This document shows positions 727 through 27,931 of a stretch of DNA of 28,497 bases, one piece after another. This DNA is from Nitrosopumilaceae archaeon (GTDB lineage Archaea; Thermoproteota; Nitrososphaeria; Nitrososphaerales; Nitrosopumilaceae). Positions within the stretch are counted from its first letter, which is position 1, and each line of letters begins with the position of its first letter. Below the pieces are notes generated by a model that made no database searches, was not told the DNA's origin, and saw nothing but the letters and a program-made list of their open reading frames with translations. The stretch covers positions 1 to 28,497 of the forward strand of contig JBQTHX010000068.1 in assembly GCA_052389415.1 (NCBI GenBank), given 5' to 3'. A program made the position numbers and the translations under genes.

Positions 727-1173
727 TTAACTTTTTTCATTTTTTAGAAAATCTAGAGAATTTTTAATTGAGTTTTTTACTTCTTCTAACAAATCTTTGA
801 GTATGTTTTCATTGTTTGTTGCCATTTTTTGTTGAAGTTCAGTATTGTAATATTTTAACCACGAATATGTATGGTGCAAATTTTCTATCATTTCGAAAGG
901 AAGTAAAGTCTGCTTGCCTGACAATATTACCGCGTCCCATATATCAGTAAAAAATGGTTTATAATCTTTGTATTGAATTGATTCATGGATAAATCGTAAC
1001 TTTCTTTCGAGATCATCGTTAATCAATACTAGTATTTTTTGTTTCATTCCTTTCTCTTCATTTTTTTGTATTCTTCTATAATTCCAATGCTCAACGTATA
1101 CCGCACCAAAAATTATTCCAGCTAATATCGACATTTCAATAATTAATTGCACCCACTCAATAACCAAAATCAA
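727..1173 (-). CDS. Hypothetical membrane-anchored protein
   Basis: 148-aa ORF with an N-terminal hydrophobic helix; a GGTGA SD-like motif suggests the true start may be the TTG at 1167. Confidence 0.7.
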   Translation of the reverse strand: MILVIEWVQLIIEMSILAGIIFGAVYVEHWNYRRIQKNEEKGMKQKILVLINDDLERKLRFIHESIQYKDYKPFFTDIWDAVILSGKQTLLPFEMIENLHHTYSWLKYYNTELQQKMATNNENILKDLLEEVKNSIKNSLDFLKNEKS

Positions 1174-1223
1174 TCACCAAAATACTGAAACCGATCAGAG
1201 TTTGTCATTAGGTTATGAAAAGA

Positions 1224-1580
1224 TCATTTTAATCGATTGTAAATAGATTTGAATTCTTCTGCTATGGTATATGCTAGGTTTTGTAACTTTGTAACTTCTA
1301 TCATGTTTGTTTTCCCCATAGCAATTTGTCTCATCTGTGTCATACATTTGTGCACTGTATTATGATCTGAGGGGGCAGTCTTGTCAGACCATGCCTTAAA
1401 ACAATCATTAAAATCAAGACAAAAATTCAGAATTATCGTTTCCCAATCTTTTGTATTACTTGGATATCCCATGCCATGAGCAAGTTCTCGAAATTCATTA
1501 CTTCGATCAATTAAGAGCATTTTTAGGGATTTTGCAGCAATTACAGTATCATAATTATCAAGTGGAGAGGATCCTTGCAT
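1224..1580 (-). CDS. Hypothetical protein
   Basis: 118-aa ATG ORF with a TATA-like element ~25-30 nt upstream and an island operator at 1622-1639. Confidence 0.7.
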   Translation of the reverse strand: MQGSSPLDNYDTVIAAKSLKMLLIDRSNEFRELAHGMGYPSNTKDWETIILNFCLDFNDCFKAWSDKTAPSDHNTVHKCMTQMRQIAMGKTNMIEVTKLQNLAYTIAEEFKSIYNRLK

Positions 1581-1621
1581 CTGAGTTAGTAAAAATAATG
1601 TGTATTTTAATAATGTTATGC

Positions 1622-1639
1622 ATTATCAATTTTGATTAC
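1622..1639. promoter_or_regulatory. Island operator ATTATCA-ATTT-TGATTAC (for ORF 1224-1580)
   Basis: Matches the repeated palindrome; lies just upstream of a minus-strand TATA-like element at ~1603-1613. Confidence 0.7.
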
Positions 1640-1649
1640 CAAATTCCAG

Positions 1650-2528
1650 TCACACAAAATGAGGATCTTTTTTTACTAATCTTGAATGAGTTTCAACTTC
1701 GCTGTATGCTCTAGTAACATCAGTTGATGTAATTACACCTTCCAAATCCTTTTCATTGTTTACAGTTGGTATTCCGCTCACTTTATACAAACTCATTAAT
1801 TTTGCGGCTTTTCCAAGATCTTCTTCTGATTCCACTGTTAAAAGTTCTGTTCCTAAAAGTTCACCTATCTGCATTTCTTTGTTTGAATTTATTGAAACAA
1901 GATAATCCCTAGTATCACTTGGTTTGTCCTGTTTAAAATATTCACTGTGTTTCATAAACAAATCATAAGTAACTACCCCAATTGGTTTTCCATAACTATC
2001 TGTTACAACAATTCGCGCGATCTTATTTTTGTTTAACATATTTAATACAAATAGTAATGAATCAGACTTGCGACATGTAATGAGCCTTCTAGTCATGTAA
2101 TCTTTTACTTTGCAGATTCCAGAATATTTTGTAGCAAAGTTTCCAGTTATATCTGATTTGGTAGTTATTCCTACAAGTTTTCCATTCTCATCTACTACTA
2201 AAATTGCACATATCTGAAATGTTTCCATCCTTATGGCACATTGTGTTAAATGATCATCCTGTCCAACTGCTATTGTAACAGGATTTCTGCTCATTATTTG
2301 ATTTAATGGTATTTCATCTAGAGATCTAGTAGTTTTATCCTTCTCAAGGAAATTTCCAATATCTCGTTCTGTTACAATGCCTAGTGGTATTTTATTATCT
2401 TCAATCACTACCCTTTTGATTTCATTTTTTTGCATAAGTAATAATGCATCATGAATACTATTATTTTGCGTCAAAGTCAATACCGGAGTACTATAAAGAT
2501 ACATTCCTGTTTTCATCATTTTGCTCAC
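1650..2528 (-). CDS. CBS-domain protein (4 CBS repeats, two Bateman modules)
   Basis: Four G(I/V)(I/V)TxxD motifs (GIVTERD, GITTKSD, GVVTYD, GVITSTD); TATA spacing suggests the real start is the ATG at 2519 or 2516. Confidence 0.9.
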   Translation of the reverse strand: MSKMMKTGMYLYSTPVLTLTQNNSIHDALLLMQKNEIKRVVIEDNKIPLGIVTERDIGNFLEKDKTTRSLDEIPLNQIMSRNPVTIAVGQDDHLTQCAIRMETFQICAILVVDENGKLVGITTKSDITGNFATKYSGICKVKDYMTRRLITCRKSDSLLFVLNMLNKNKIARIVVTDSYGKPIGVVTYDLFMKHSEYFKQDKPSDTRDYLVSINSNKEMQIGELLGTELLTVESEEDLGKAAKLMSLYKVSGIPTVNNEKDLEGVITSTDVTRAYSEVETHSRLVKKDPHFV

Positions 2529-2557
2529 TCTTGTTTAAGATTTAAAGTATGGATATG

Positions 2558-2575
2558 ATTTTCATCCATGGTCAT
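2558..2575. promoter_or_regulatory. Island operator ATTTTCA-TCCA-TGGTCAT (degenerate)
   Basis: 11 bp upstream of minus-strand TTTAAA (2546-2541) of the CBS gene. Confidence 0.55.
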
Positions 2576-2607
2576 AAAATAAAAATTCTGAATTCCCAAT
2601 GCGATTT

Positions 2608-2943
2608 TCACCCTGTTGCATTGGGAACTATCTCAATATCCAATGAACCTCCATTAAAGTAGGCAACTATGGATTTTACTTTACTCTTGTACAAAAAATA
2701 TTTTTTACCATCTTCATTAATTGAGCCTGAGATTCCAAGGAGCTTATTATCGTGTAATTCCTGCACTCTTCTATATGCAGTGCTGATTGGGATTTTACAT
2801 TCTGCGCTCAGTTCAATTGCTGATTTTGGAAAATCCAGTGTTGCCTCAAGAATGGCACGAGAGTATTTGTCAGCTAATATTCTTAGCATGACATCTTTCG
2901 TAACTTCTTCTTGAACCTGTTTTCCCTGTTGAAGTACTTGCAT
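2608..2943 (-). CDS. Winged helix-turn-helix transcriptional regulator (ArsR-like)
   Basis: LADKYSRAILEAT...KSAIELSAECKIPISTAYRRVQEL HTH plus wing; paralogous to 28018-28347. Confidence 0.85.
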   Translation of the reverse strand: MQVLQQGKQVQEEVTKDVMLRILADKYSRAILEATLDFPKSAIELSAECKIPISTAYRRVQELHDNKLLGISGSINEDGKKYFLYKSKVKSIVAYFNGGSLDIEIVPNATG

Positions 2944-3008
2944 GCAAAGTCTTTACATGTTTATCGATATAGATAGTGGGATTGCTTTGCCATGCACTGC
3001 ACTAAATA

Positions 3009-3488
3009 CTAATGAACAATCATTACAGGGCAAGTAGCTAATTCAGTAACTTTACGGCTGACACTTCCAAGGGTGACAATCTTGGCTAATCCATGTCTGC
3101 CTTGGCTTCCCATAACAATTAGGTCAATTTTACGACCACGCATGAATTTCAGAATCGATTCCACGGGATGCCCTGATATGATGTCATAAAATGTTTTAGA
3201 TATTCCTCTTGCTTTGCAGATCCCCACTTCTGCTAAAAGGTCTTTTCTTACTTGCGATTTTACCGCAGAAATGTATTCGTTTATTGATTCTTCAAGGATC
3301 TTGTCTTTTTTTAGTAAGGCTAGTAGCATACCTGGAGGAAAATCAGATGTATCGACTGCAGCAATTATGTAAATTTCTGAATCAAATTTTTTGGCGATAC
3401 TAATTGCTTGACTGATAGCATTTCGAGAATACCGTGAACCATCAAATGGAACAAGAATTCTTTTAAAAATCCCGTTTGTCATAAACAA
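3009..3488 (-). CDS. Universal stress protein (UspA family)
   Basis: FKRILVPFDGS, DLIVMGSQG, LGSVSRKV and CPVMIVH motifs; start is probably the ATG at 3482. Confidence 0.93.
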   Translation of the reverse strand: MFMTNGIFKRILVPFDGSRYSRNAISQAISIAKKFDSEIYIIAAVDTSDFPPGMLLALLKKDKILEESINEYISAVKSQVRKDLLAEVGICKARGISKTFYDIISGHPVESILKFMRGRKIDLIVMGSQGRHGLAKIVTLGSVSRKVTELATCPVMIVH

Positions 3489-3521
3489 ATTATTATCAAT
3501 ATATACTTAAATCAATTCATA

Positions 3522-3539
3522 GACTCCATTGATGATTAT
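3522..3539. promoter_or_regulatory. Island operator GACTCCA-TTGA-TGATTAT (for Usp 3009-3488)
   Basis: 10 bp upstream of minus-strand TTTAAGTA (3511-3504). Confidence 0.55.
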
Positions 3540-3573
3540 CAAATGTATTCTTTGTTTGTTAGTGGAAAAAGTC

Positions 3574-3604
3574 ACTGTCAAAAATGATAATCAATATGGG
3601 GAAT
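3574..3604. promoter_or_regulatory. Tandem island operators ACTGTCA-AAAA-TGATAAT / ATAATCA-ATAT-GGGGAAT (for Hsp20 3644)
   Basis: Two overlapping copies 13 bp apart; ends 10 bp before TATATAAA (3615-3622). Confidence 0.7.
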
Positions 3605-3643
3605 TTAGAATCTGTATATAAATAAGAAAGCTAAAACTTCAAC

Positions 3644-3928
3644 ATGGAAAAAAAATCCAAAGAAAAGAAACTAGATACTTCGGTAGAAATTTCTGCAGAG
3701 CATAAAGAACAAGAAGAAGAAAAAAAGAAAAACTATGTCAGAAAAGAACGTAAAGAGTTATCTTATCACAGAACATTGCCTTTGCCTGAAAAAGTTATAT
3801 CTTCAAAGGCAAATGCGAAGCTAAACAATGGAATTCTAAGTATAGAGATTCCAAAAACAACACCAACTCCAAAACCAAAGAGCTCTACTATCTCAGTTCA
3901 ATGGTTCTTTTCAATTTTTTATTTTTAA
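3644..3928 (+). pseudogene. Hsp20/alpha-crystallin small heat-shock protein, internally deleted (probable pseudogene)
   Basis: Only the C-terminal half of the alpha-crystallin domain is present (VEISAE...ERKELSYHRTLPLP...AKLNNGILSIEIPK...ISV), fused directly to MEKKSKEKKL; reads past the IxV motif into the convergent gene. Confidence 0.65.
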
Positions 3929-4816
3929 TATATTGTTCTTTATTATTTGTGCAGAATCACCAAGAGCTTTTAGTTCTGGCCAATTCAGATCGATTTTGTT
4001 TATTTTAATTATTCCTGTTTTACATATAGTAACTGGTATGCCAAGACATACGTCGGATAATCCATATTCGCCTTCTAATAACATAGATGCTGAAAAATCC
4101 CTCTTTTCATCATTAACAATTGTTTTGACAATATCAAAAGTATTTTTGGCAGCTCCAAAAACAGAAGCCTCTTTAAATGATTTTAAGAGTTTCCAATAAT
4201 TTTTTAATTCCTCGGTAATTCGTATAGTTTCACTCTCTTCTAATATTTGCAGAATAGGTTTTTCATCATATTTTGCACTTGAAAATATCGGAACCATGGA
4301 ATCACCGTGTTCACCCATTACAATGCCTTCTACTTTTGACATGTTTGTTTCAAGAGACTTGGCAAGTAAATAACGAAATCTGGCAGAATCAAGGCTTGAA
4401 CCCATTCCAATAACGTTTTCTCTGTTCAAGCCAGTTTCTTTTAATATTGTGTACGTAACAACATCCAAAGGATTCGTTACTACCACAATCTTTGCACTGT
4501 CGTTGTACTTTCTTATTTTTTGTGCGATTTCTCTAGCTAATGAAACATTTGCTAAAAGCAAATCTGTTCTATTGGTAGTTATTTTTCCTCTGCTTGCCGT
4601 TATTACGATCACTTTGGAATCTCTTATTGTCTCAAAATCGTCTGTGCCTATTACAGAAATTGATGAATCTTCAGATATGGAATTGGTAATATCAAGTGCT
4701 TCTCCGATTGCCTTGGTTTTAGTAGAATTTATCAGAGTAATATCATCCAATCCCGTCGATGCCGCTAGAAATCCCACTGCAGAACCGACTCGGCCAGCTC
4801 CAATTATGGAAATAAT
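3911..4816 (-). CDS. Divergent lactate/malate dehydrogenase family protein; apparent start codon ATT at 4816
   Basis: In-frame N-terminal extension IISIIGAGRVGS (GxGxxG) upstream of the tracked GTG; has VVTNPLD, LDSARF and GEHGDS; AGGTGA SD lies 6 nt upstream of the ATT. Confidence 0.85.
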   Translation of the reverse strand: MISIIGAGRVGSAVGFLAASTGLDDITLINSTKTKAIGEALDITNSISEDSSISVIGTDDFETIRDSKVIVITASRGKITTNRTDLLLANVSLAREIAQKIRKYNDSAKIVVVTNPLDVVTYTILKETGLNRENVIGMGSSLDSARFRYLLAKSLETNMSKVEGIVMGEHGDSMVPIFSSAKYDEKPILQILEESETIRITEELKNYWKLLKSFKEASVFGAAKNTFDIVKTIVNDEKRDFSASMLLEGEYGLSDVCLGIPVTICKTGIIKINKIDLNWPELKALGDSAQIIKNNILKIKN

Positions 4817-4829
4817 GAAATTTCACCTA

Positions 4830-5258
4830 TCACTTTACTATCAAAACAGGTACCTTGGATTTATGAAGAACACTATTTGAAACACTTCCCAAAAATACTT
4901 CTTTTACTGATCCTAATCCTCTAGCTCCTATGACAATAAGATCAAAGTTTTTCTCTGCAGCATAGCCTACAATCTCTTCTGATTCATGACCATCTGTTAT
5001 TTTCTCATTAAATACAATTCCATTTTGTGCGCATCGAACTTTAGCTTCCTCCATTATTTCCTTTCCTCTCTTTCGGAGCTCTTTTTCATAGGATATGGGT
5101 GTCAACAGCAAAGATTTGGGATAAAAAGGCACTACGTTAATCCCAGTTAATGTGGCTCCACATTGTCTTGCTAGGTAAACTGCATAGTCTAGACCTCGAA
5201 ATGAATTTTTTGAACCATCAAGAGGTACAAGAATCCTTCTTATCGCTGGCAATTTCAT
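4830..5258 (-). CDS. Universal stress protein (UspA family)
   Basis: RRILVPLDGS, DLIVIGARG, LGSVSNSVL and PVLIVK motifs. Confidence 0.94.
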   Translation of the reverse strand: MKLPAIRRILVPLDGSKNSFRGLDYAVYLARQCGATLTGINVVPFYPKSLLLTPISYEKELRKRGKEIMEEAKVRCAQNGIVFNEKITDGHESEEIVGYAAEKNFDLIVIGARGLGSVKEVFLGSVSNSVLHKSKVPVLIVK

Positions 5259-5298
5259 AGATTAGATTATTTCCATGCCAATTTAATAATGTATTTAG

Positions 5299-5316
5299 AA
5301 TATCAATATTGATAAT
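5299..5316. promoter_or_regulatory. Island operator AATATCA-ATAT-TGATAAT (for the Usp-MDH operon)
   Basis: Near-perfect palindrome, 9-10 bp upstream of minus-strand TTATTAAA (5289-5282). Confidence 0.75.
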
Positions 5317-5363
5317 AAAGAATTGATTTATCAAATTATTATGATTCATTTCGGATGATTGTC

Positions 5364-5394
5364 TTTATCACTCACGATTATCAATATTAGGAAT
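5364..5394. promoter_or_regulatory. Tandem island operators TTTATCA-CTCA-CGATTAT / ATTATCA-ATAT-TAGGAAT (for the CBS-HPF gene)
   Basis: 13-bp offset pair ending 10 bp before TTTTTATT (5405-5412). Confidence 0.7.
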
Positions 5395-5488
5395 CAATCG
5401 CTCTTTTTTATTATTCATTAATTGTATTTCTTGTGTAATAAGCCATGGAGCAACTGTTAATTATGCTGAATTCGATGGAGTTTTTGGA

Positions 5489-6658
5489 ATGAGTTCGCCC
5501 CAAACCACACATGAATATTTGAAAGACATTCGCAATACAAATGTTACAAGAGTAATGCGTGCTGCAACAATGGTGGAACCCTCGTATTCACTCTCAAAAG
5601 TAATTGGTATGATGTCTGAAACTGATTCTTTTGATGTATACTGTATAGATGATGGGAAGGTATTGACAACAAATGGACGAGAGATTCTGAGTGCCAAAAA
5701 CATCGCGTCTGTGAAAATTTCTTCCTTGTTACACAGAATAAAACCGCTGTCAAAAACAGACACAATAGAAAAAGCTGCTACTGCAATGTCTCACTATAGA
5801 ATGCGTTCATTTCCTGTGATGGACGGTAAGAAAATCATGAGCGTCGTGACAGCAAAAAATATAGTCAATCTCTTGTCAAGACAAAATCTGAATTGGATTA
5901 GGGCAAATTCTGTCCTAACTGCAAATCCTATAGTTCTAAGCAACGTCGAATCACTTGCAAAAGCTAGAAAAACCATGATGACAAAGAGAATAGATCACAT
6001 ACCAATATTTCACAAAGGCAAAATTGGTCAAGTTTTAACTTCAATGCATTTGCTCCGATTGATTACTCCTCCTGAGAGGATAGGAAGTGATCAAAAAGGA
6101 GTTAATCCTAAAAGCCGATTTGAATCAGATATAGGAAACATAGGTAGCCCACGAATTCCACTATGTAGTACCAATGATACAATAAACACAGTTATAGATG
6201 CCATGCTAAAATCAGATACAACGTGTTGTCTTCTTACTCTGTGGGAAAATATCCACGGCATAATTACTTACAGGGACATACTAGATCTAATTTCTACAAA
6301 GATTTCAAGTACAGTTCCACTTTACATCATTGGAATGCCTGATGACACTGAGAACGCCGAAATCGTTAAAACAAAATTTCAAAAAATAATCAGTAATTTA
6401 ACTAAAGTTTATCCTGAAGTTGAAGAAGCAAAAACATCAATAAAAACAATACACAATCCAACAAGTCAAAGAAAACACTTTGAGGTTTCAGTTAGAATAG
6501 TTACTCCGTACAAAAATTATAATTATATTGAATCCGGATGGGATCTTTCCAAAGCATTTGATGCATTAGGAAAACGCATTATGAAAAATCTTTCAAACCG
6601 AAGTAAAAAACGTTGGAAGACATCATTACGAAAAGTATCAAAGAGAGAAATTTTTTAA
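5489..6658 (+). CDS. CBS-domain protein with C-terminal HPF/RaiA-like domain (candidate archaeal ribosome hibernation factor, Hib-like)
   Basis: Four degenerate CBS repeats (last GIITYRD), then ~110 aa with a beta-alpha-beta-beta-beta-alpha pattern ending ESGWDLSKAFDAL and a basic tail. Confidence 0.75.
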   Translation: MSSPQTTHEYLKDIRNTNVTRVMRAATMVEPSYSLSKVIGMMSETDSFDVYCIDDGKVLTTNGREILSAKNIASVKISSLLHRIKPLSKTDTIEKAATAMSHYRMRSFPVMDGKKIMSVVTAKNIVNLLSRQNLNWIRANSVLTANPIVLSNVESLAKARKTMMTKRIDHIPIFHKGKIGQVLTSMHLLRLITPPERIGSDQKGVNPKSRFESDIGNIGSPRIPLCSTNDTINTVIDAMLKSDTTCCLLTLWENIHGIITYRDILDLISTKISSTVPLYIIGMPDDTENAEIVKTKFQKIISNLTKVYPEVEEAKTSIKTIHNPTSQRKHFEVSVRIVTPYKNYNYIESGWDLSKAFDALGKRIMKNLSNRSKKRWKTSLRKVSKREIF

Positions 6659-8307
6659 TTACATTCCCATTTCAGGCATATGTGGCTGTCCACCTGGAGG
6701 AGAAGAAGGTTTCGATGAAGCCACGACATTGTCTATTCTAAGTATCATGTTGGCAGTTTCAGTTGCAGATTTGATCACTTGTTCTTTTACCTTGATTGGT
6801 TCTACAATGTCAGATTTTTGAATGTCTCCAACAACTCCATTGATGGAATCAATTCCAGCCCATTTTTCTCCAGCGCTATGTTTAGAACGAAGTTGGGTTA
6901 TTGCATCTATTGGATTCATACCTGCATTTCTTGCAAGCGCCAGAGGAATTGATTCTAAGGCCTCCGCAAATTTTTCTACCGCTAATTGCTCTCTTCCTGA
7001 CAACGATTGTGCCCAACTTCGCAATTTTGTTGCTACGTATCCTTCTGGTGCTCCTCCTCCATACACTATAAGGGTTTTTCTATTACATCCTTTACAACCA
7101 TTAATGCGTCATGAATCGACCTTTCTGCCTCATCAATTACTCTTTGCGATCCTCCTCTGAGTAGTAAACTCACAGCTTTTGGATTTTTACACCCTTCGAC
7201 AAAAACCCAGTTATCATTTTCTATAGGTCTTTCTTCTACAGTTTGAGCATCGCCAAGGTCTTTTTCTGTCAGATCATTTACGCTTCCGACTATCCTTCCA
7301 CCTGTTGCTTTTGCAAGTTTTGACATATCGCTTTCTTTAATTCGTCTTACTGCAATTATCCCAGCTTTAGCTAGATGGTGTTGGGCTATGTCATCAATGC
7401 CTTTCTGGCAAAGAACTACATTTGCATTGATCGATTTTATTTTGTCTACCATTCCTTTTAGTATGCTATCTTCCTCTGCCATGAAAGTACGTATTTGATC
7501 AGGTGTGTTTATGTTAATCTTGGCATCAAATTCCGTTTTTTCAATTTCTAACGGAGCACTAATCAATGCGATTTTTGCATTTTGTATTTTTTTTGGCATG
7601 CCGCTGTGAACAATTTCCTTATCCAAGACAATTCCATTTATCAGTCTGCTATCTGCAATTGATGCTCCTGCCTTCTTTTCTACCTTGATATTGTTTAGAT
7701 CAACTGCAAAAGTATCATCTCTAGGTGTTACTACAGAAAGCACTGCGTCAACTGCTATCTTTGCCAAATCTTCTGCCCCTACAGAAACCAATTTTGTTAC
7801 TAATGAAGTAACTGCAATTTTTTCAAGTATTTTTCTATCTTTTGGCTCGACTTTTTGCGCAATTTCTGATAGAAGAGACATGGCCTTAATTGCAGCTTTC
7901 TGATATCCATTTGCTATAATTACAGGATGAATATCATTTTCTACTAGTCCTTCTGCTTTTTCGAGGAGAGCACCTGCCATTACTACAGCTGAAGTGGTTC
8001 CATCACCTACCTCACTATCTGTGGCTTTGGCAACCTCTACCATCATTTTTGCTGCAGGATGCTGAACGTCAATCTCTTTTAGAATAGTTGCACCATCATT
8101 GGTAATTGTAATATCTCCAATAGAGTCAACAAGCATTTTATCCATTCCTCTTGGTCCAAGACTAGTACTGATTATTTCTGCAATTAGTTTGGCTGCTGCA
8201 ATGTTATTACGTTGAGCTTCTCTTCCTCGTGACTGCCTAGACCCCTCCTTTAACACTATTACTGGAATACCTTCCGTAGTTGTCTGAACCGATGACATGC
8301 TGTTCAC
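6659..8307 (-). pseudogene. ths: Thermosome (group II chaperonin) subunit, split by a 1-bp frameshift near 7070
   Basis: [18 protein letters not shown] and GDGTT motifs in 7066-8307 continue as (I)VYGGGAPE...ILRID in another frame; likely start is the ATG at 8298. Confidence 0.9.
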
Positions 8308-8339
8308 ATTGCAAAGTTTTGCTTTTATAATGAACTATG

Positions 8340-8370
8340 AATTTCAGGTATGATTATCAATAATGAAAAT
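8340..8370. promoter_or_regulatory. Tandem island operators AATTTCA-GGTA-TGATTAT / ATTATCA-ATAA-TGAAAAT shared by the divergent ths and PAC2 promoters
   Basis: 9 bp from minus-strand TTATAAAA (8330-8323) and 10 bp from plus-strand TTTTTTAG (8381-8388). Confidence 0.75.
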
Positions 8371-8410
8371 ATTACACCACTTTTTTAGAATAATTATATT
8401 ATAAAATTCA

Positions 8411-9166
8411 ATGATTTCACAATCTGATGATTCTAATTTAAAAAAACTAGAAAAAATGCCAAAATCACCATCAATATTATTCGTAGGTATTCCTGGACCA
8501 GGTCTGATTGGAATTCTTTCGTTAAATTACATAATACATTCACTTGAGATGGATATTATTGGAGAAATAGGACACTCTGATTTATCAAATATTATTTTTG
8601 TTGACAATGGCGAACTTTATGGTCCTGTAAGAATTTACAAAAAAAATAACATTCATGTTGTGATATCCGATGTTCCAATAGATTATGTAATAGCTGAAGA
8701 TTTTGCGGATTCACTCATTAAATTTTCAAAGAAGAGCAAGATAGACATGATTGTGTTATTAAGTGGCATACATGCAGTTGAGAGGAATCTGACTAATCTA
8801 AAGACATATGGTCTTGTAACTGACTACAAATTAGATCAAGTCTTATATGAAAATGAGATTCCAAAGTTTCTTTCTGGTATGATTGCAGGACCTGATGCAA
8901 CAATCCTTACTAAACTAAAAAACTCACCAATTTCAACAATTGTTCTTTATACTGAATGTAATTTCTTCTTTCCCGATCCAGAAGCTTCAATTCATAGCAT
9001 AAGTACGATATCACGAATAATAAAAAAAGAGATCGATGTTACTGAATTTAAAAAACAGATTGATTTCTTGCGATTGCAAAGCAGACAGCTTATGGAAGAT
9101 ACCTTGACAATTTTGAATCCAGAGAAAACTAAACCTGCTGTTTCAGCTCCCCAAATTTATAAGTGA
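8411..9166 (+). CDS. PAC2-family proteasome assembly chaperone (PbaA/PbaB-like)
   Basis: GIPGPGLIG, PVRIY and PDPEAS motifs; C-terminal IYK resembles an HbYX motif. Confidence 0.85.
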   Translation: MISQSDDSNLKKLEKMPKSPSILFVGIPGPGLIGILSLNYIIHSLEMDIIGEIGHSDLSNIIFVDNGELYGPVRIYKKNNIHVVISDVPIDYVIAEDFADSLIKFSKKSKIDMIVLLSGIHAVERNLTNLKTYGLVTDYKLDQVLYENEIPKFLSGMIAGPDATILTKLKNSPISTIVLYTECNFFFPDPEASIHSISTISRIIKKEIDVTEFKKQIDFLRLQSRQLMEDTLTILNPEKTKPAVSAPQIYK

Positions 9167-9172
9167 GAAAAT

Positions 9173-9562
9173 ATGTCAAACCAATCTTTTACATCATTTG
9201 AAAAGTTTTTCACCTCTTTAATAACCAGAGATATGGATGATTATACGAACAAGGAACTTGCTCCATTGTCTTATTTGACAGAAAAAGATTCTAAATGGAT
9301 TTTAGAAATAGATCTTCCCTTCGTCAACAAAAAAGACATAGAAATCACTATTGCTGATAACCAATTAATTGTCACAGCAAAGTTAGAAAAAACTTACTGT
9401 GTTTCAAAACGTGATTGCATAATTGAATTCAATTATTTTAGAAAAGCTACTTTGCTGCCTATGGGAATAGATAAAGAAAAAATTTCTGCAAAATTCAACA
9501 ACGGGATTCTGAGCGTAAATATGCCTAAAATTTCAGTCGGTATAAATATCAAAATCGATTAA
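9173..9562 (+). CDS. Hsp20/alpha-crystallin small heat-shock protein
   Basis: LEIDLPFVNKKDIEI...AKFNNGILSVNMPK and a terminal IKI motif. Confidence 0.9.
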   Translation: MSNQSFTSFEKFFTSLITRDMDDYTNKELAPLSYLTEKDSKWILEIDLPFVNKKDIEITIADNQLIVTAKLEKTYCVSKRDCIIEFNYFRKATLLPMGIDKEKISAKFNNGILSVNMPKISVGINIKID

Positions 9563-9564
9563 TT

Positions 9565-10563
9565 TTGTCTTCAAAAATTACTAATTCAAAAAATGCTTCT
9601 GGAATAGCTGGTCTGAAAAGCTCTAGAAAATTTCTTGCAGTTACAAGAGATGAAACAGTTAGTAATGTTAAGAACCTAATAATGGATAAAATAAAAGATT
9701 TAGATATTATAGACGATGTTTATGTTGTAGATAAAAACAATACGCTTGAAGGAGCAGTTTCATTGAGAAATCTTTTGCAAAATCCAAATGAAGTAAAGTT
9801 AGGGGAAATAATGAAAACAAAAGTAGCTTCTGTAAAATATCATAGTCATCAAGAAAGAGTGATTCATCTTGCATTAAAAAATGAATTGAAAGCAGTTCCT
9901 GTCGTAGATAAGGAAAATCATCTTTTAGGTGTTATACCACACGATGTCATATTGGATATCTTTCATCATGAATTTCGCGAAGACATTCTTAGTTTAGGAG
10001 GCATTCATCATAAAGTGAAGGAAATAGAAGAAATTACGACGCCTGTTTCACGGCTCATAAAAGCAAGACTGCCATCATTAATCATCGGTCTATTGGGTGG
10101 TCTTGTAGCTGCTTATATTGTAGGAGGATTCGAGGAAGTTCTAAGATCATATCTTATCTTAGCTGCATTCATGCCAGTCATGATTTACTTGAGTGATGCT
10201 GTTGGCACCCAATCTCAAACTCTCATTGTTAGGATGATTTCAAGAGAGCCTAAATTTTCTTTGAAGCACTATATGGCGCGTGAACTAAAGATAGGAGCAA
10301 GTCTTGGTTCTATTTTTGCAATATTGCTTTTCACTGCAACGTTCCTGGGATGGGGACCTGCATCACTGGGAGCAATCATTGGAATATCCATCTTTGTGAG
10401 CATGTTGACTCAGACCTTTATTGCAACATATCTATCGATGATATTAACAAAAGTTCACATAGATCCTGCTGTTACATCCGGACCTATTGCAACTATTATC
10501 AGCGATATTACCACTGTAATAACATATTTTAGTATAGCAGCCTTGCTCTTAGAGAATTTTTAA
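9565..10563 (+). CDS. mgtE: MgtE-family magnesium transporter (CBS pair + 5 TM; lacks the N-terminal superhelical domain)
   Basis: ARLPSLII, AAFMPVMI..SDAVGTQS and DPAVTSGPIATIISD signatures. Confidence 0.88.
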   Translation: MSSKITNSKNASGIAGLKSSRKFLAVTRDETVSNVKNLIMDKIKDLDIIDDVYVVDKNNTLEGAVSLRNLLQNPNEVKLGEIMKTKVASVKYHSHQERVIHLALKNELKAVPVVDKENHLLGVIPHDVILDIFHHEFREDILSLGGIHHKVKEIEEITTPVSRLIKARLPSLIIGLLGGLVAAYIVGGFEEVLRSYLILAAFMPVMIYLSDAVGTQSQTLIVRMISREPKFSLKHYMARELKIGASLGSIFAILLFTATFLGWGPASLGAIIGISIFVSMLTQTFIATYLSMILTKVHIDPAVTSGPIATIISDITTVITYFSIAALLLENF

Positions 10564-10578
10564 CTTATCTTCAACAAA

Positions 10579-11028
10579 TTAATGAACTATAGTTACAGGA
10601 CACGTGGCATGTTCAGAAACATATCTTGCAGTACTTCCAAGTCTTTTAAGTGCAGCAAGACCCTTCATGCGTCTACTGCCCATAACAATGAGATTTATTC
10701 TGTTTTTCTTTGCATATTTTAAAATGGTGTATGAAACATCACCTTCAAGCACTTTGTAGTATGCTTTCACTCCTTCTTGTCTACACTTTTCTGTAACTAT
10801 TTTGATTTCCTTTTCTCCTTTTGTTTTTAATTCTTTGATAATCTTACTATAATCTCCCATTGTGGCACCAGAGTAAATTGATGGTTCACTCATTGGATAA
10901 AACATGGGTATTATCATTAATAATTCCAAATTTGCGTTAAAATTACGTGCAATTTCTTTTCCTAAATCTAATGCTTTCTTCGAAAGTGGTGAACCTTCGT
11001 ATGGAACTAGTATATTTTTTATTATCAT
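10579..11028 (-). CDS. Universal stress protein (UspA family)
   Basis: KNILVPYEGS, NLIVMGSR, LGSTARYV and CPVTIVH motifs. Confidence 0.93.
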   Translation of the reverse strand: MIIKNILVPYEGSPLSKKALDLGKEIARNFNANLELLMIIPMFYPMSEPSIYSGATMGDYSKIIKELKTKGEKEIKIVTEKCRQEGVKAYYKVLEGDVSYTILKYAKKNRINLIVMGSRRMKGLAALKRLGSTARYVSEHATCPVTIVH

Positions 11029-11297
11029 TTGAAAATATCCTTTATTTTAATTCGGTATTTTTCAGCAATCGTTCCAAATTCTGCAAAATCTTGTTCAGAA
11101 GGCGATTTTATTCTCAATGTATAATGTGTTAAAAATGTAGGCAATACATTCCCAACAATCAAAGTATAACATGTTTCAGACAAGTCCTTTACTGTTGGAA
11201 ATGCTAGTTTGATAAATGGCAAGTAAGCTCTTGTTTGATCAATCATCAATTCGAACTGCTTTTCTAATATTTGCTTTATTTCTGCTGGTATGGTCAT
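11025..11297 (-). CDS. Hypothetical protein
   Basis: 90-aa ORF, ATGA-coupled to the downstream Usp. Confidence 0.7.
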   Translation of the reverse strand: MTIPAEIKQILEKQFELMIDQTRAYLPFIKLAFPTVKDLSETCYTLIVGNVLPTFLTHYTLRIKSPSEQDFAEFGTIAEKYRIKIKDIFK

Positions 11298-11302
11298 ATT
11301 GA

Positions 11303-11509
11303 TTACTTCCTGTAAGCAACTTCAAATTGTTTTGGACTATAATGAGATGAACATAGAAAAACTGTCTTACCGTCAATTACCTTTCCTGTAATGGATATGC
11401 CATTCAATTCTTTTTTACAGATGTAACATGTCAATGGTGAAACGGATGAATGAAGTAAGGGTTTCTTTCCTTCATGATACAGATCATGATAAAGAAATTC
11501 TTCTTTCAT
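11303..11509 (-). CDS. Small putative zinc-finger protein
   Basis: CYIC...CSSH ligand set; first gene of a 3-gene operon with TATA and operator. Confidence 0.7.
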   Translation of the reverse strand: MKEEFLYHDLYHEGKKPLLHSSVSPLTCYICKKELNGISITGKVIDGKTVFLCSSHYSPKQFEVAYRK

Positions 11510-11555
11510 TTTTATGCACAGTAAATATGGTTTTAAATATAAAGATTAGGTGCTA

Positions 11556-11609
11556 ATTATCAGTAGTGATTTTATCTTATTTTCAACCTTGATAATTTGA
11601 TACGATAAT
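11556..11609. promoter_or_regulatory. Island operators ATTATCA-GTAG-TGATTTT (11556-11573) and ATTTTCA-ACCT-TGATAAT plus tandem partner (11579-11609)
   Basis: Located between divergent TATA boxes (minus 11543-11536; plus 11621-11628). Confidence 0.75.
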
Positions 11610-11649
11610 CATCTTCTCATTTTTATATTAAAATTAGTAAAAATTCATC

Positions 11650-12099
11650 ATGACAACTGCTAAAGATATCATGAGCAAGAAAGTAGTTTCGGTAGAACCA
11701 ACAGTTTCCGTAAACGAAATTGCAAAACTAATGGACAGAAATAACGTAAGTTGTGTAGTCTTAATGCAAAATGAGGAACCTTATGGCATCATAACGGAGA
11801 GAGATCTACTATCAAAAGTTACTGCTCTTAATAAGAGATCCTCCGAAATTAGAGCAGAGGAGATCATGTCATATCCAGTTGCTCTGGTGTCTTCTTTTAC
11901 CCCATCAGATGAGATTGTACAAAAAATGTTAGAAAAGAGAATTAGAAGGGTGGTTGTAGTGGATGGCCACCAACCTGTAGGAATAATCACAGTTACTGAT
12001 TTTATAAAACACCTAAACTCCATTGTCGAAGACTATGATAATTACAAAAAAGATCTTTATCAGAGCCTTATTGATGAATATGATCATTGGAAAGGCTAG
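11650..12099 (+). CDS. CBS-domain protein (single CBS pair)
   Basis: AKDIMSK, GIITERD and GIITVTD motifs. Confidence 0.92.
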   Translation: MTTAKDIMSKKVVSVEPTVSVNEIAKLMDRNNVSCVVLMQNEEPYGIITERDLLSKVTALNKRSSEIRAEEIMSYPVALVSSFTPSDEIVQKMLEKRIRRVVVVDGHQPVGIITVTDFIKHLNSIVEDYDNYKKDLYQSLIDEYDHWKG

Positions 12100-12125
12100 A
12101 TTGCATTTGCCACTTGTAGCAGCAA

Positions 12126-12980
12126 TTAAGATGCAATAGCTTTCACGATATTTGTCTTTGTGATAATTCCTACAAGTAACGAGTTCTTTACCACTGGCAA
12201 GCCACTAATTCCATGTCGAATCATAAGTAATGCTACGTTTGATACATCATCCGTAGATTCAACCACCACTGGGTTTGAAGTCATAATGTCAGCAGCTATG
12301 AAATTAAGAAGATAGCTTAGTTGATTTGCTTTGTATTCATAAGGTGTGGAGCTTAGGGCAAATTCCTCAACATCTTTTGGGTCTGAGAATTGTTTTATCC
12401 ATAAAGGCATTTTTGCAGGAATAAAATCACGGTGAGTAATGATTCCTACTGGCCTTCTCTTTCTTTCTACAACCACTCTTGAGATCTTATTATTTATCAA
12501 AACACTTTCAACAAATAATAAGGAATCAGCAGGTTTTACAGTAATTACTTTTCTTGTCATGATTCTGGATACTTGAAGTGGAGTAGACGATTGAGTAAGA
12601 AAGACAGAAGCAAGATCGGTTTTTGTTATTATTCCTGCTAATGTGCCATCTTTTTTTAGTACAATTATTGAGCTTATCTTATGAGACAACATTAGTTTAG
12701 CACAATCATGAATGGTATCTTTTTCAGTAATAGTAACAAGATCTCTTGACATGAACTCGTTGACTCGTATTGCTTCAAGCGGCTTCCCTGCAAGATAATA
12801 AATTGCTCGGACAAGATCCTTCTCAGTTATTATTCCCACTGGCTTTTCGCCTCTAGATACTATTAATCGACTAATTTTATGCCTCAAAAGTATGGATCTA
12901 GCTTCTAAAAGCGGAGTATCTGGTGAAACCACAATAGTTCTTTTAATGACCTGACCAAGACCGACATTTCCTAGGTGCAT
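12126..12980 (-). CDS. CBS-domain protein (4 CBS repeats)
   Basis: GIITEKD, GIITKTD, GIITHRD and GIITKTN motifs. Confidence 0.92.
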   Translation of the reverse strand: MHLGNVGLGQVIKRTIVVSPDTPLLEARSILLRHKISRLIVSRGEKPVGIITEKDLVRAIYYLAGKPLEAIRVNEFMSRDLVTITEKDTIHDCAKLMLSHKISSIIVLKKDGTLAGIITKTDLASVFLTQSSTPLQVSRIMTRKVITVKPADSLLFVESVLINNKISRVVVERKRRPVGIITHRDFIPAKMPLWIKQFSDPKDVEEFALSSTPYEYKANQLSYLLNFIAADIMTSNPVVVESTDDVSNVALLMIRHGISGLPVVKNSLLVGIITKTNIVKAIAS

Positions 12981-13020
12981 TTTTTTTATTCACTTATTGC
13001 AAAATAAGAAGCCTTTTCAA

Positions 13021-13051
13021 AATATTAATGATGAGAATCAGAGATGAAAGT
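13021..13051. promoter_or_regulatory. Tandem island operators AATATTA-ATGA-TGAGAAT / AGAATCA-GAGA-TGAAAGT
   Basis: 13-bp offset pair, 11 bp before TTTAAG (13063) in a divergent CBS/CBS promoter region. Confidence 0.6.
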
Positions 13052-13094
13052 TCTTGACAACCTTTAAGTGGAAATTCCGTTTTTTTATTAACGC

Positions 13095-13640
13095 ATGGCA
13101 TTAAATCTACTTAATGAATCAATAACAAAATTTACAACCCATAAGATGACCGCCGTTGCAAGCAATCTAACCATAAGTGATACAGCAAGAGTCATGGTAG
13201 ATTCCAATGTAGACAGTGTTCTTGTCTTTGAACATGGTCAAATAATAGGCATCGTAACAGAAAAGGACATTTTCCAAGATATAGTTGCAAAAGATTTGGA
13301 CCCAAAAAAAATTACTGTAAAAAAAATAGCAAAGAAACCGCTAATCACAATAAGAAAAGACGCAACAGTAAGAGAAGCAATTGACCTGATGGAAAAACAC
13401 AACATACGCAGACTGGTTGTGATGGATAAACGGCCAATAGGATTAATTACACAGAAAATGGTTTGTGGAAATCTAGGTGAAGACTCATTTACATTGCCAG
13501 AATTAGTGTCAGAAAAGATACTCTGTCCTTATTGTTCATCACAATTTGAGAATAAGAAGATCCTCTCAAAGCATATAGATGACATACACATTGGTCGTGG
13601 CCTGCTTGAGGGGAATTTAAAACGAACCACGACAGAGTAA
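13095..13640 (+). CDS. CBS pair fused to a C2H2-type zinc finger
   Basis: GIVTEKD and GLITQK motifs; C-terminal CPYC-x12-HIDDIH. Confidence 0.88.
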   Translation: MALNLLNESITKFTTHKMTAVASNLTISDTARVMVDSNVDSVLVFEHGQIIGIVTEKDIFQDIVAKDLDPKKITVKKIAKKPLITIRKDATVREAIDLMEKHNIRRLVVMDKRPIGLITQKMVCGNLGEDSFTLPELVSEKILCPYCSSQFENKKILSKHIDDIHIGRGLLEGNLKRTTTE

Positions 13641-13667
13641 AATACAGTAAAAGATCACATACTTTAA

Positions 13668-14252
13668 TTGAAAAATTCTGTCAACCGAAAGCACCATGAC
13701 ACAAAACATGAAATAACTCGCAGCATAACCTATAGACTTCCTGCTAAATTGGTAGAAGATCTTGAAACAGAAGCAAACCAAAAAGAAATTTCCCAAAATG
13801 TTCTAGTAAAGCAAATTTTGGAAAAATATACTCAGTGGGATAAATTTGCAAATGTAATGGGTATAATTCCTATCCCCAAAGAGATTCTTAAAACACTCGG
13901 AGAAGACATGAAAGGTGATGAAATTAACAAAATTGTTGATGTAATACTTCCTATGATAAAGGATTGGATCATGTTTATGAAAGGAAGTTATGATCTGAAA
14001 AGGGCAATAGAATCTTTAGAAGACTATATGAGAGCTTCAGGAATGACATCTGATCACAGAATTGAGGGAAACATTCACCATTTTATAATACAACATAATT
14101 TAGGTATGCGTTGGTCACTTTTTACTGAACAATTATTAAAACACATTTTTCATCAATTCTTACCTGATAAAATTATGAATTCTAGAACAACCGAGAACAC
14201 GACAATTGCAAGCATAGCATTAGGATCAGAGTTTGATGAACATCAATACTAA
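13668..14252 (+). CDS. Putative ribbon-helix-helix DNA-binding protein with C-terminal domain
   Basis: TRSITYRLPAKLVEDLETEA..ISQNVLVKQIL fits an RHH pattern. Confidence 0.65.
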   Translation: MKNSVNRKHHDTKHEITRSITYRLPAKLVEDLETEANQKEISQNVLVKQILEKYTQWDKFANVMGIIPIPKEILKTLGEDMKGDEINKIVDVILPMIKDWIMFMKGSYDLKRAIESLEDYMRASGMTSDHRIEGNIHHFIIQHNLGMRWSLFTEQLLKHIFHQFLPDKIMNSRTTENTTIASIALGSEFDEHQY

Positions 14253-14320
14253 CGAATAATCAAAATTTTTTCCGTTATAAAATTTGAAATTCTCACCAAT
14301 TTTTAAAATGTTTATGGGTA

Positions 14321-14338
14321 ATTCTCACATTGGATAAT
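14321..14338. promoter_or_regulatory. Island operator ATTCTCA-CATT-GGATAAT
   Basis: 10 bp before TTTAATTA (14349-14356). Confidence 0.7.
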
Positions 14339-14379
14339 CACCAGGTACTTTAATTAAATCAACATAACAAAACAAACCA

Positions 14380-14856
14380 TTGGTTAAACTAACAAAAGAG
14401 ATTCAGGAAATGTTACGTTCTCAAAAGTTTATTGTCGTAGGTTCAGTTGACTTGAATGGGGTTGCCAACCTCTCTCCAAGAACTGCGTTTTACTTTTCAG
14501 ATGACTCTGTATTTTGGTTAGATTTTTTCAAACACAAATCACATATTAATTTTAAATCCCTGCCATGGGTTAGCATAGCAGTTTTTGACAAGATGAAATT
14601 AAAGGGGTTCCAGATGAAGGGTAAAGTTTCTTTTGTCGAGGATGTAAAAGAAAAAGAAAAAATGATTGATTTGATAACGCGGTCATCTACTGGAAAAACC
14701 TCGTCCAAGGTTTTTGAAAGACTAAATGTAGATAAATCCCCTGACGTCGTGTCATTCAAACCAAGGGCAATCTATTCACTTGATCCGGAAGAATATTCAG
14801 GTAGAGCAATTGTGTTAGATACTGATGGTGAGACAGTCTCTCTACTTGGAATCTAG
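14380..14856 (+). CDS. Pyridoxamine 5'-phosphate oxidase-like FMN-binding split-barrel protein
   Basis: VGSVDLNGVANLSPR, KSHINFKSLPWVSI and GFQMKG motifs. Confidence 0.8.
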   Translation: MVKLTKEIQEMLRSQKFIVVGSVDLNGVANLSPRTAFYFSDDSVFWLDFFKHKSHINFKSLPWVSIAVFDKMKLKGFQMKGKVSFVEDVKEKEKMIDLITRSSTGKTSSKVFERLNVDKSPDVVSFKPRAIYSLDPEEYSGRAIVLDTDGETVSLLGI

Positions 14857-23514: not shown

Positions 23515-23528
23515 TTAGGGCAAGCTAA
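23515..23528. promoter_or_regulatory. DtxR/MntR-type box TTAGG-GCAA-GCTAA
   Basis: Lies between minus-strand TTTAAATA (23541-23534) and the ATG at 23508. Confidence 0.7.
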
Positions 23529-27917: not shown

Positions 27918-27931
27918 TTAGGACAAGCTAA
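27918..27931. promoter_or_regulatory. DtxR/MntR-type box TTAGG-ACAA-GCTAA
   Basis: Immediately downstream of minus-strand TTTAAATA (27942-27935) of the FTR1 operon. Confidence 0.72.

Follow-up and report, generated by a model that had tools for sequence, protein, structure and literature searches.

Ribosome hibernation factors of archaea have been described only in 2025–26. HibA/AHA binds across the ribosomal subunits and binds AMP/ATP, and its deletion impairs recovery from stationary phase (PMC13324472; PMC13728122); in the available portions of these reports, ribosome binding, translation block, and 70S preservation are known for Pyrococcus abyssi, T. barophilus, and Hfx. volcanii only. 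In M. acetivorans, the CBS-tetrad genes sriABCD are clustered, sri transcripts rise under energy depletion, and SriC has a long basic β-hairpin loop that engages uS11 and the 3′ end of 16S rRNA, with SriD as partner (PMC13454478, available portions). The mycobacterial DosR (DevR) regulon combines, in many small units, Usp proteins, α-crystallin, a CBS pair, flavoproteins, and an S30AE/HPF protein, the DosR-controlled RafH (PMC3390679), and Nitrosopumilus maritimus has operons in which Usp genes lie beside CBS genes (Nmar_1271–1274 and Nmar_0673–0674), the proteins of which co-appear at 32 °C (PMC12974425; both in the portions available). Here we describe an island at positions 727–14856 of a contig (JBQTHX010000068.1, below C68) of a Nitrosopumilaceae archaeon (assembly GCA_052389415.1; 1.43 Mb in 94 contigs, 94% complete, G+C 34%), in which a HibA-type fusion protein is encoded among Usp, CBS, and chaperone genes that share a palindromic promoter element, TGATWATCA. 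The window is the whole analyzed stretch of this contig, 28,497 nucleotides.

Ammonia-oxidizing archaea dominate nitrification in soils, sediments, and oceans, and how they survive shortfalls of oxygen or energy is poorly known. We read the island as a chromosomal, vertically conserved regulon of about 21 genes in at least 13 short transcription units, comprising a conserved, probably co-regulated set of stress and hibernation genes that would give a low-activity survival state; we put the probability of this joint reading at roughly 0.6. The components belong to known families, and it is the regulon, its motif, and its register that appear to be new: no description of these, or of the candidate regulators, was found in the literature searched, in which coverage of subscription journals is thin. 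The island thus offers an entry to the upstream control of hibernation factors: it provides a cis-element of defined, fixed register and two candidate regulators, and its gene set ties Usp, CBS, chaperone, and proteasome-assembly genes to these factors. This likely archaeal survival programme is directly testable in existing cultures.

Conservation and gene content of the island

Gene families were called by Pfam and NCBIfam scans of the 33 open reading frames (ORFs) of the window, and conservation was followed by tblastn of the island proteins on 13 loci, each designated by L and a number. The order of the whole island is kept in three loci of the same genus (L013, L015, and L019) and in two further genera (L020 and L021). 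SDR and GatB flanks are shared wherever the conserved loci extend that far, and GatB follows in L013 and L020 too. In five distant genomes of the family (L022–L026), HibA lies beside rearranged subsets of the island, namely PAC2-Hsp20, a CBS tetrad, several Usp genes, the winged-helix (wHTH)–tetrad pair, the ribbon-helix-helix (RHH) protein, the malate dehydrogenase-type gene (MDH), and PNPOx; in other families (L027–L029), HibA is the sole match of the island proteins. In all, the order is kept in three genera, and four other genera have the island in rearranged form. The genes are as follows (lengths in amino acids, aa).

727–1173, minus strand: ORF of 148 aa without a Pfam or NCBIfam family; left island edge, membership doubtful, kept solely in the same-genus loci L013 and L019
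1224–1580, minus strand: ORF of 118 aa (hyp118) without a family; kept in L013, L019, L020, L024, and L026
1650–2528, minus strand: CBS tetrad, SriC-like, with four CBS stretches by Pfam; likely true start the ATG at 2519, conserved in alignment A7
2608–2943, minus strand: winged-helix HTH_20/ArsR-like protein, 111 aa; Pfam HTH_20 E 5e-4, under the curated cut-off
3009–3488, minus strand: Usp 1; Pfam Usp E 5.4e-28, likely start the ATG at 3482 (alignment A2)
3644–3928, plus strand: Hsp20a, 94 aa; Pfam HSP20, profile positions 29–102 only
3911–4777 from the listed GTG, probably 3911–4816, minus strand: lactate/malate dehydrogenase (LDH/MDH) paralogue; Pfam Ldh_1_N and Ldh_1_C, second gene behind Usp 2
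4830–5258, minus strand: Usp 2; Pfam Usp E 5.6e-33
5445–5492, plus strand: upstream ORF (uORF) of 15 codons, its TGA overlapping the HibA ATG (ATGA)
5489–6658, plus strand: CBS-tetrad and HPF/RaiA fusion of HibA/AHA type, 389 aa, by profile alignment to 9sr9_H
6659–8307, minus strand: thermosome, third paralogue, in two pieces; Pfam Cpn60_TCP1
8411–9166, plus strand: PAC2 by Pfam
9173–9562, plus strand: Hsp20b; Pfam HSP20
9565–10563, plus strand: short MgtE with CBS; Pfam MgtE and CBS
10579–11028, minus strand: Usp 3; Pfam Usp E 3.4e-27
11025–11297, minus strand: ORF of 90 aa without a family
11303–11509, minus strand: Cys-rich ORF of 68 aa (Cys68), absent from the ORF list, with a CxxC…C..H pattern and without a family
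11650–12099, plus strand: CBS pair, 149 aa; Pfam CBS E 1.3e-26
12126–12980, minus strand: CBS tetrad, SriC-like, by profile match to 9zni_6
13095–13640, plus strand: CBS pair with C-terminal Zn finger (CBS-Zn), 181 aa; Pfam CBS E 5.5e-22, weak zf-Di19
13668–14252, plus strand: RHH-like N terminus and conserved α/β domain, 194 aa; weak CopG/BrnA matches at residues 12–53
14380–14856, plus strand: PNPOx-like flavin mononucleotide (FMN) split-barrel protein; Pfam PNPOx_N E 3.9e-11, right island edge

Beyond the right edge lie GatCAB, AspRS, and unrelated genes. PAC2, Hsp20b, and MgtE (8411–10563) likely form one operon, with intergenic gaps of 6 and 2 nt and a gene order kept in L013 and L019; the Cys68 ORF, which has a codon-like conservation pattern in six loci, the 90-aa ORF, and Usp 3 (10579–11509) likely form another.

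Although the island makes up 1% of the genome, it holds three of the four Usp matches, the fourth being a weak match inside an 802-aa frame, so that all three stand-alone Usp genes of the genome sit here. It likewise contains the genome's sole HibA-like gene, 6 of about 13 CBS-bearing genes, 2 of the 4 Hsp20 genes, one of the three thermosome paralogues (the other two, on contigs C84 and C29, are 65%–67% identical), and one of the two MDH-type genes (the other, on C87, is 29% identical). The clustering claimed in the earlier note is borne out by these Usp, CBS, and Hsp20 proportions, and its content list of 3 Usp, 2 Hsp20, PAC2, LDH/MDH, a PNPOx-like protein, MgtE, and a CBS-HPF fusion was recovered by the Pfam, NCBIfam, and profile searches. 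Its count of five CBS proteins holds for the four stand-alone proteins plus the fusion and rises to six CBS-bearing genes with MgtE; its extra thermosome is present as a third paralogue, but is split by a 1-nt frameshift in this strain.

A HibA-type fusion and two SriC-like tetrads

A profile of the fusion (A4), built from 14 orthologues of the compared loci, aligns almost end to end with chain 9sr9_H (E 5.8e-29; query 19–384, chain 6–387), where 9SR9 is the HibA-ATP structure of P. abyssi (PMC13324472, available portion). A single-sequence search with the fusion gave matches to CBS chains only. The HPF model PF02482 matched in 4/14 fusion orthologues (best E 1.7e-6), and the window's own copy gave no PF02482 match at E values up to 1. 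In the AlphaFold (AF2) model of the fusion (predicted local distance difference test score, pLDDT, 80.8), the N-terminal tetrad comprises four β-α-β-β-α repeats, with which the Pfam CBS stretches agree, and residues 278–374 form a C-terminal β-α-β-β-β-α fold; Foldseek matches of the tetrad are MJ1225 (E 5e-17), SriD, SriA, AMPK-γ, and Dri. Taken together, the profile alignment, PF02482 in the orthologues, the fold model, and the tetrad fold matches identify the protein, at the level of predicted sequence and structure, as a full-length member of the HibA/AHA ribosome-hibernation family. The CBS-HPF fusion named in the earlier note is thus a true hibernation-factor homologue.

Similar to HibA/AHA, the fusion is collinear through the HPF domain, with the same architecture and length (389 aa here, 392 aa there) and a CBS tetrad resembling AMPK-γ and MJ1225. 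In contrast to HibA/AHA, it is encoded inside a multi-gene island with a common promoter element, and a conserved overlapping uORF precedes the window's gene. The uORF, of 14–15 codons, is present with the same frame and overlap in 6/14 loci from three genera, its peptide not being conserved; L024 has an 8-codon version. It may serve in translational coupling or re-initiation control of the hibernation factor.

The best solved relative of both island tetrads is 9zni_6, for 1650–2528 with E 5.3e-17 (query 11–273 of 292) and for 12126–12980 with E 1.2e-22 (query 17–282 of 284). 9ZNI is the SriC-SriD ribosome complex of M. acetivorans (PMC13454478, available portion), and its chain 6 is taken as SriC because chain 7 recurs in a SriD-only entry, as inferred from the entry list. 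By these profile matches, the two proteins are stand-alone CBS tetrads of about 280 aa that are closest to SriC. The resemblance to the sriABCD cluster and Dri lies in the clustering of CBS-tetrad genes, the island tetrads matching SriC best. In contrast to the sri operon, the island genes are separate units under a common box, mixed with Usp, chaperone, and transporter genes, and SriA, SriB, and SriD are all 0 in the Nitrosopumilaceae rows of the published supplement (file 10 of PMC13454478, here and below as a sample of about 60 of its 321 species rows). Nitrososphaerales homologues were placed in a “SriC-short” clade, which has a shorter, less basic ribosome-binding loop, and were omitted from the Sri analyses (PMC13454478, available portion). 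The orthologue of the 12126–12980 tetrad is adjacent and divergent to HibA in L023–L026 (tblastn), and Hib with a neighboring “SriC short” is recorded in the same supplement.

A shared promoter element in a fixed register

At least 11 island promoters carry a 9-bp palindrome, TGATWATCA, often as two or three units 13 bp apart. The best unit starts at −59 to −63 from the start codon in hyp118, Usp 1, Hsp20a, Usp 2, PAC2, the second CBS tetrad, CBS-Zn, the CBS pair, and PNPOx, and several promoters have a further unit near −47. With the ATG at 2519 taken as its start, the first CBS tetrad falls into the common register; units stand at −52 for the thermosome, −53 for the Cys68 operon, and −70 for the HibA uORF. 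TATA-like boxes, read from the sequence with unmapped transcription starts, lie about 22–30 nt before the start codons, and the units therefore abut the B recognition element (BRE)/TATA region; we infer that the box-bearing mRNAs are leaderless or short-leader. The units are listed below without strand.

1620–1641: units TGGTAATCA and TGATAATGC, read on the minus strand and spaced by 13 bp; block kept in L013, L019, and L020, with the box at 1633–1641 starting 61 nt before the ATG of hyp118 (1224–1580)
2556–2577: proximal box TGAAAATCA (2556–2564) and a degenerate distal unit, upstream of the TATA CTTTAAAT (2540–2547)
3490–3593: three boxes between divergent Usp 1 and Hsp20a, at 3490–3498 (one mismatch), 3533–3541, and 3585–3593 (both exact)
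5297–5396: boxes of the divergent Usp 2 and HibA promoters, at 5297–5318 (two units, ATATCA-N4-TGATAA) and 5375–5396 (CGATTATCA and a second unit)
8338–8372: exact box at 8351–8359 with weaker units 13 bp on either side, midway between the divergent thermosome and PAC2 TATA boxes
11554–11611: four boxes in the spacer that separates the CBS-pair gene from the Cys68 operon, at 11554, 11577, 11590, and 11603, with 13-bp steps among the final three
13032–13040: box TGAGAATCA, common to the divergent CBS-tetrad and CBS-Zn promoters; kept in five loci
14319–14340: boxes TAATTCTCA and GGATAATCA, spaced by 13 bp, immediately before the PNPOx TATA
2982–3002: a conserved element of another kind, tandem TGCA pentamers ahead of the wHTH gene, aligned in six loci

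The positions are closely tied to the genes that they precede: between Usp 1 and Hsp20a, each exact box starts 59 nt before the start codon of its own gene, and the single box at 13032–13040 starts 60 and 63 nt before the two divergent start codons. Comparison among genomes supports the palindrome as the conserved unit. At 2556–2577 the half-sites are conserved and the 4-nt spacers vary in both units (A7; eight loci, seven genera); the Usp 2/HibA boxes have invariant half-sites and a variable 4-nt spacer (A1, six loci); ATGATTATCA in the thermosome/PAC2 spacer is invariant in six loci (A3); and in the Usp 1/Hsp20a spacer (A2) the central W swaps between A and T among genomes with the palindrome preserved. 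TGATWATCA units also precede HibA in four further genera (L023–L026). No box was seen upstream of the Usp 2 homologue in three complete genomes of the family that have neither island nor HibA, and none was found upstream of the wHTH gene or of ORF 727–1173; the TGCA repeats at 2982–3002 may be an autoregulatory site of the winged-helix gene.

Motif statistics were obtained with crude gene calls (longest ORFs of at least 90 aa, chosen greedily), so that small genes count as spacer. Allowing one mismatch, there are 146 intergenic matches genome-wide, 12 of them in the island, where 1.2 are expected from its share of the intergenic DNA (1,475 of 175,953 bp; binomial P 5e-9); 3 of the 11 exact intergenic matches are island sites. 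Of the 783 placements of a 14.2-kb sliding window, the one on the island has the most matches; outside contig C68 the highest count is 7. A match starting 58–64 nt before a candidate start was found for 23 of 1,409 genes genome-wide, and 9 of these 23 are island genes. The single shared operator proposed before this analysis is upheld, redefined as TGATWATCA, by the intergenic enrichment and the fixed register.

A description of the operator as a 16-bp palindrome, TTATCA-N4-TGATAA, was dropped: the 16-mer is the junction of two 9-bp units, and a 9-bp unit every 13 bp better fits the W flip and the tandem arrays in L023–L026.

Most other matches outside the island look like noise. The clearest candidate regulon member there is a divergent CBS pair of genes on contig C65 (G000:C65:4049-4205, L030), where the DNA between the genes for a CBS pair (149 aa) and a 278-aa CBS protein contains one exact TGATAATCA box and one further unit. 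Weaker candidates, as leads only, are a hemerythrin gene (C40), a PNPOx-like gene (C27), a receiver-domain gene (C56), and an AHSA1-like gene (C9). A further lead only is a pair of units, CGATAATCA-TTAA-TGATTAACA, 13 bp apart, between an amoB-like fragment and amoC (G000:C77:31127-31148, L031), about 160 nt before amoC.

Distribution of HibA and the candidate regulators

Nitrosopumilaceae have been named among the lineages without identifiable hibernation factors (PMC13324472), and a search of the available supplements of that report for Nitrosopumilaceae names gave none. In contrast to that statement, 20 of the 36 genomes of the family that we searched have HibA, of which 18 matches cover all or nearly all of the protein and 2 are truncated by the end of a contig. 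Both HibA and SriC-short had been recorded in the family before: in the sampled rows of the PMC13454478 supplement, Hib is present in 12/15 rows of Nitrosarchaeum and Nitrosarchaeum_A, in both Nitrosotenuis cloacae entries, and in some species of CSP1-1, DRGT01, JACQFM01, and JAWVZS01, mostly beside “SriC short,” and none is recorded there for N. maritimus, N. adriaticus, N. piranensis, N. oxyclinae, Nitrosopelagicus brevis, or two Cenarchaeum species. The presence of HibA in non-pelagic genera qualifies the published statement (as given in the available portion of PMC13324472). For the hibernation factor, the habitat pattern runs in the direction that the earlier note predicted, with Nitrosarchaeum and Nitrosotenuis cloacae having it and the marine isolates lacking it. 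Soil, low-salinity sediment, and wastewater are the habitats of the Hib-bearing genera; the Hib-less taxa are marine, pelagic, or symbiotic. Occurrence of HibA in several non-pelagic genera and its absence from pelagic isolates fit an ecological split.

Two island genes are candidates for the regulator. The 111-aa wHTH protein is 61%–89% identical in seven loci, and its gene always adjoins the CBS tetrad in the compared loci (tblastn). The 194-aa RHH protein is the best-conserved island protein (67%–85% identical across seven genera), and its C-terminal domain carries five invariant histidines. Its model has a pLDDT of 66, with designed proteins as the top Foldseek matches; fold matches of the C-terminal domain reach Z ≤ 7.1 (VirS/CdpR sensor domains, H-NOX, Bet3, and V4R), the best natural ones being the VirS sensor domain (Z 7.1) and H-NOX (Z 5.8–6.0), all within the chance range. 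In Atlas the RHH family is confined to Nitrososphaerota clusters, with HicB on 11% of the members of one cluster.

Among the 36 family genomes, 20 have HibA, 19 the RHH protein (split over two contig ends in one of them), and 18 the wHTH protein, and the genomes with the three nearly coincide, which amounts to no statistical test because the genomes are kin. In the 15 genomes that lack both HibA and an HPF-only gene, no orthologue of wHTH or RHH was found, two of them having weak paralogues; one genome (G032) has both regulators with an HPF-only gene and no full HibA. HPF-only ORFs of 115–130 aa, matching fusion residues 271–384, occur at G032:C16:81294-81632, G045:C1:435451-435762, and G060:C92:45833-46147.

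Paralogues of wHTH and RHH lie side by side at G015:C7:45762-46663, G020:C1:419557-420439, G034:C3:29535-30480, and G039:C3:64964-66491. A function as a pair is therefore possible, and the arrangement hints at a recurring two-gene regulatory module in Nitrososphaerales.

Comparison with DosR and the Usp-CBS operons

The island resembles the DosR regulon in family content and in having tandem palindromic boxes upstream of its promoters (PMC3177182 and PMC3390679, available portions), and the DosR-regulon CBS pair Rv2626c is among the matches of the fusion profile. In contrast to DosR, it has another motif, archaeal transcription machinery, and contiguous rather than scattered genes, and Pfam gave no match to DosR-type Response_reg or GerE/LuxR, or to DosS/DosT-type HisKA or GAF, in the 33 window ORFs. 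The comparison with DosR made in the earlier note therefore holds for the parallel in family content; it does not extend to a DosR, DosS, or haem kinase in the island, nor to the motif. The parallel is a fair analogy of family content, not homology or regulon membership. The DosR regulon is induced by hypoxia, NO, or CO; on the island's side the corresponding evidence is indirect, namely the hypoxia response of these families in sponge-associated relatives (10.1101/2023.02.27.530229). The wider reading in the earlier note, of a convergently assembled survival programme, gains partial support from the finding of one conserved island with a precisely placed cis-element and a true hibernation-factor homologue, whereas convergence with DosR stands as analogy only. 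The N. maritimus Usp-CBS operons share the neighborhood of Usp and CBS genes; in contrast to the island, there is no Hib there (sampled rows of PMC13454478).

Proposed programme and alternative explanations

In the mechanism that we propose, a dimeric island-encoded regulator, the 111-aa wHTH protein and/or the 194-aa RHH protein with its putative ligand-binding domain, would bind the boxes, probably cooperatively, and switch the whole gene set together. Activation is somewhat likelier than repression, because the boxes sit upstream of the BRE. The CBS and Usp domains would read adenylates, HibA and the SriC-like proteins would occupy and protect idle ribosomes, the chaperones and PAC2 would preserve the proteome, and MgtE, MDH, and the flavoprotein would adjust Mg2+ and redox balance. 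The set would most likely be triggered by falling energy charge, heat, or a limited supply of oxygen. In two sponge-associated Nitrosopumilus-like archaea, only a few genes rise in hypoxia, among them those for UspA, HSP20, CBS-domain proteins, PII, and transcription regulators, and in one of the two symbionts an LDH/MDH gene as well (10.1101/2023.02.27.530229); in N. maritimus, Hsp20, four Usp, and neighboring CBS proteins are up or detected only at 32 °C (PMC12974425; both in the portions available). These data and those on M. acetivorans make hypoxia, heat, and low energy charge all candidate triggers; ammonia starvation is the least supported.

A bolder version would make the RHH protein a lineage-specific one-component sensor of O2, NO, or redox state with an H-NOX/V4R-like domain, which binds the −60/−47 units, recruits the basal machinery to about a dozen promoters, and so switches the ammonia oxidizer to hibernation, with HibA additionally gated by the leaderless 14–15-codon uORF and made by re-initiation according to ribosome traffic. 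We regard this as a long shot.

Several observations weigh against a co-regulated survival programme. In anoxia, three genes outside this set were raised in one sponge symbiont and none changed in the other (10.1101/2023.02.27.530229), and in N. maritimus, which is without HibA, usp transcripts were not regulated in ammonia starvation or copper stress (PMC12974425), in the available portions of both reports. The island SriC-like proteins belong to the “SriC-short” group that was set aside as possibly diverged in function (PMC13454478, available portion), and the wHTH and RHH candidates rest on weak family assignments only. Over the whole window with coding DNA, the motif has 27 matches with 18.75 expected, a count reached in 6/100 shuffles; the intergenic statistics rest on crude ORF-based gene calls; and the phyletic argument draws on related, non-independent genomes. 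Two island chaperone genes are damaged in this strain, which fits relaxed selection on part of the set.

Some of these points suit an ordinary heat-shock or proteostasis regulon with a heat-responsive regulator, in which the island serves folding stress and HibA is one more stress gene. The two small heat-shock protein genes, the thermosome, and PAC2 are what such a regulon would contain, and the appearance of Hsp20, Usp, and neighboring CBS proteins of N. maritimus only at 32 °C, with usp transcripts flat in ammonia starvation, agrees with it (PMC12974425, available portion). However, chaperone or PAC2 genes head just 3 of the at least 11 box promoters, the rest being adenylate-binding or hibernation genes; the same families rose in hypoxia in situ (10.1101/2023.02.27.530229, available portion); and it is two chaperone genes that are damaged here while the remaining island is intact. 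We consider a pure heat-shock regulon unlikely, though deserving of attention.

That the island is instead a remnant or cargo of an integrated mobile element, its patchy distribution reflecting gain by transfer and no physiological programme, is suggested by its presence in 20/36 and absence from 16/36 family genomes and by the place of the UspA, CBS, CopG/RHH, and hemerythrin arCOGs in a list of the 20 most frequent cargo families in integrated elements of thaumarchaea (PMC6563490, available portion). Mobility in the distant past is conceivable, but for the present island we judge such an origin very improbable: no integrase was found among the window ORFs (Pfam) and no tRNA gene in the window scan, Rfam and tRNA scans of the window giving no match; the G+C content is even, at about 0.31–0.40 throughout the window; the SDR and GatB housekeeping flanks are the same in two genera; and mobility leaves the positioned common promoter element unexplained. 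Little credence can be given to a view of the box as an upstream promoter element general to this lineage, or as an AT-rich pattern arisen by chance, with no dedicated regulator and with the genes as independently controlled paralogue clusters, even though the G+C content of the genome is 34%, the window as a whole shows no significant excess of the 9-mer at one mismatch, and 134 of the 146 intergenic matches lie outside the island. The rate in island spacers is ten-fold higher (8.1 versus 0.77 per kb), just 14 of the roughly 1,390 genes outside the island carry a site at the fixed register in a permissive test, and half-sites are kept while spacers and flanks drift. A conserved, probably co-regulated survival island is the reading that we prefer.

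Strain-specific changes and other observations

The thermosome gene is split by a 1-nt frameshift at the C run 7066–7074, where one base of a minus-strand C4 run is lost; the N-terminal part covers Cpn60_TCP1 positions 1–369 and the C-terminal part 373–488, and the gene of relatives reads through in frame. A search for sequencing runs listed no RNA run, and the DNA runs that it gave bear no habitat labels. In these four DNA runs of one study (X1–X4), of which X1 and X2 are possible source samples, the contigs of X3 and X4 have one extra base after 7071, and those of X1 and X2 are without it. The frameshift is either a strain polymorphism or a homopolymer error. Hsp20a has 94 aa, compared with 164 aa in three relatives with which its first 13 residues are identical; an in-frame internal deletion of about 76 residues takes out the N-terminal region together with the beginning of the α-crystallin domain, and the stop codon is lost. 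The X3 contig continues with sequence resembling the N-terminal region of the long Hsp20a.

In the LDH/MDH gene, the listed GTG falls downstream of the Rossmann motif IISIIGAGRVGS, which is preceded at five codons by a stop (…*NFIISIIGAGRVGS), and no ATG, GTG, or TTG occurs between this in-frame stop and the motif (4778–4829). A GGTGA Shine-Dalgarno sequence precedes an ATT by 6–7 nt. The absence of ATG/GTG/TTG and the Shine-Dalgarno sequence before the ATT suggest a non-canonical start codon, and the gene probably starts at this ATT. The genes of L013 and L021 are likewise without a standard start, and L020 has a GTG.

Elsewhere in the window, TTAGGRCAAGCTAA lies between the TATA and the start of both a 371-aa ORF and an FTR1-like permease gene (23515–23528 and 27918–27931), and a perfect 9+9 palindrome, CATTCTAAA-AC-TTTAGAATG (27952–27971), lies beside a paralogous HTH gene (28018–28347). 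These elements, unrelated to TGATWATCA, may mark a metal regulon.

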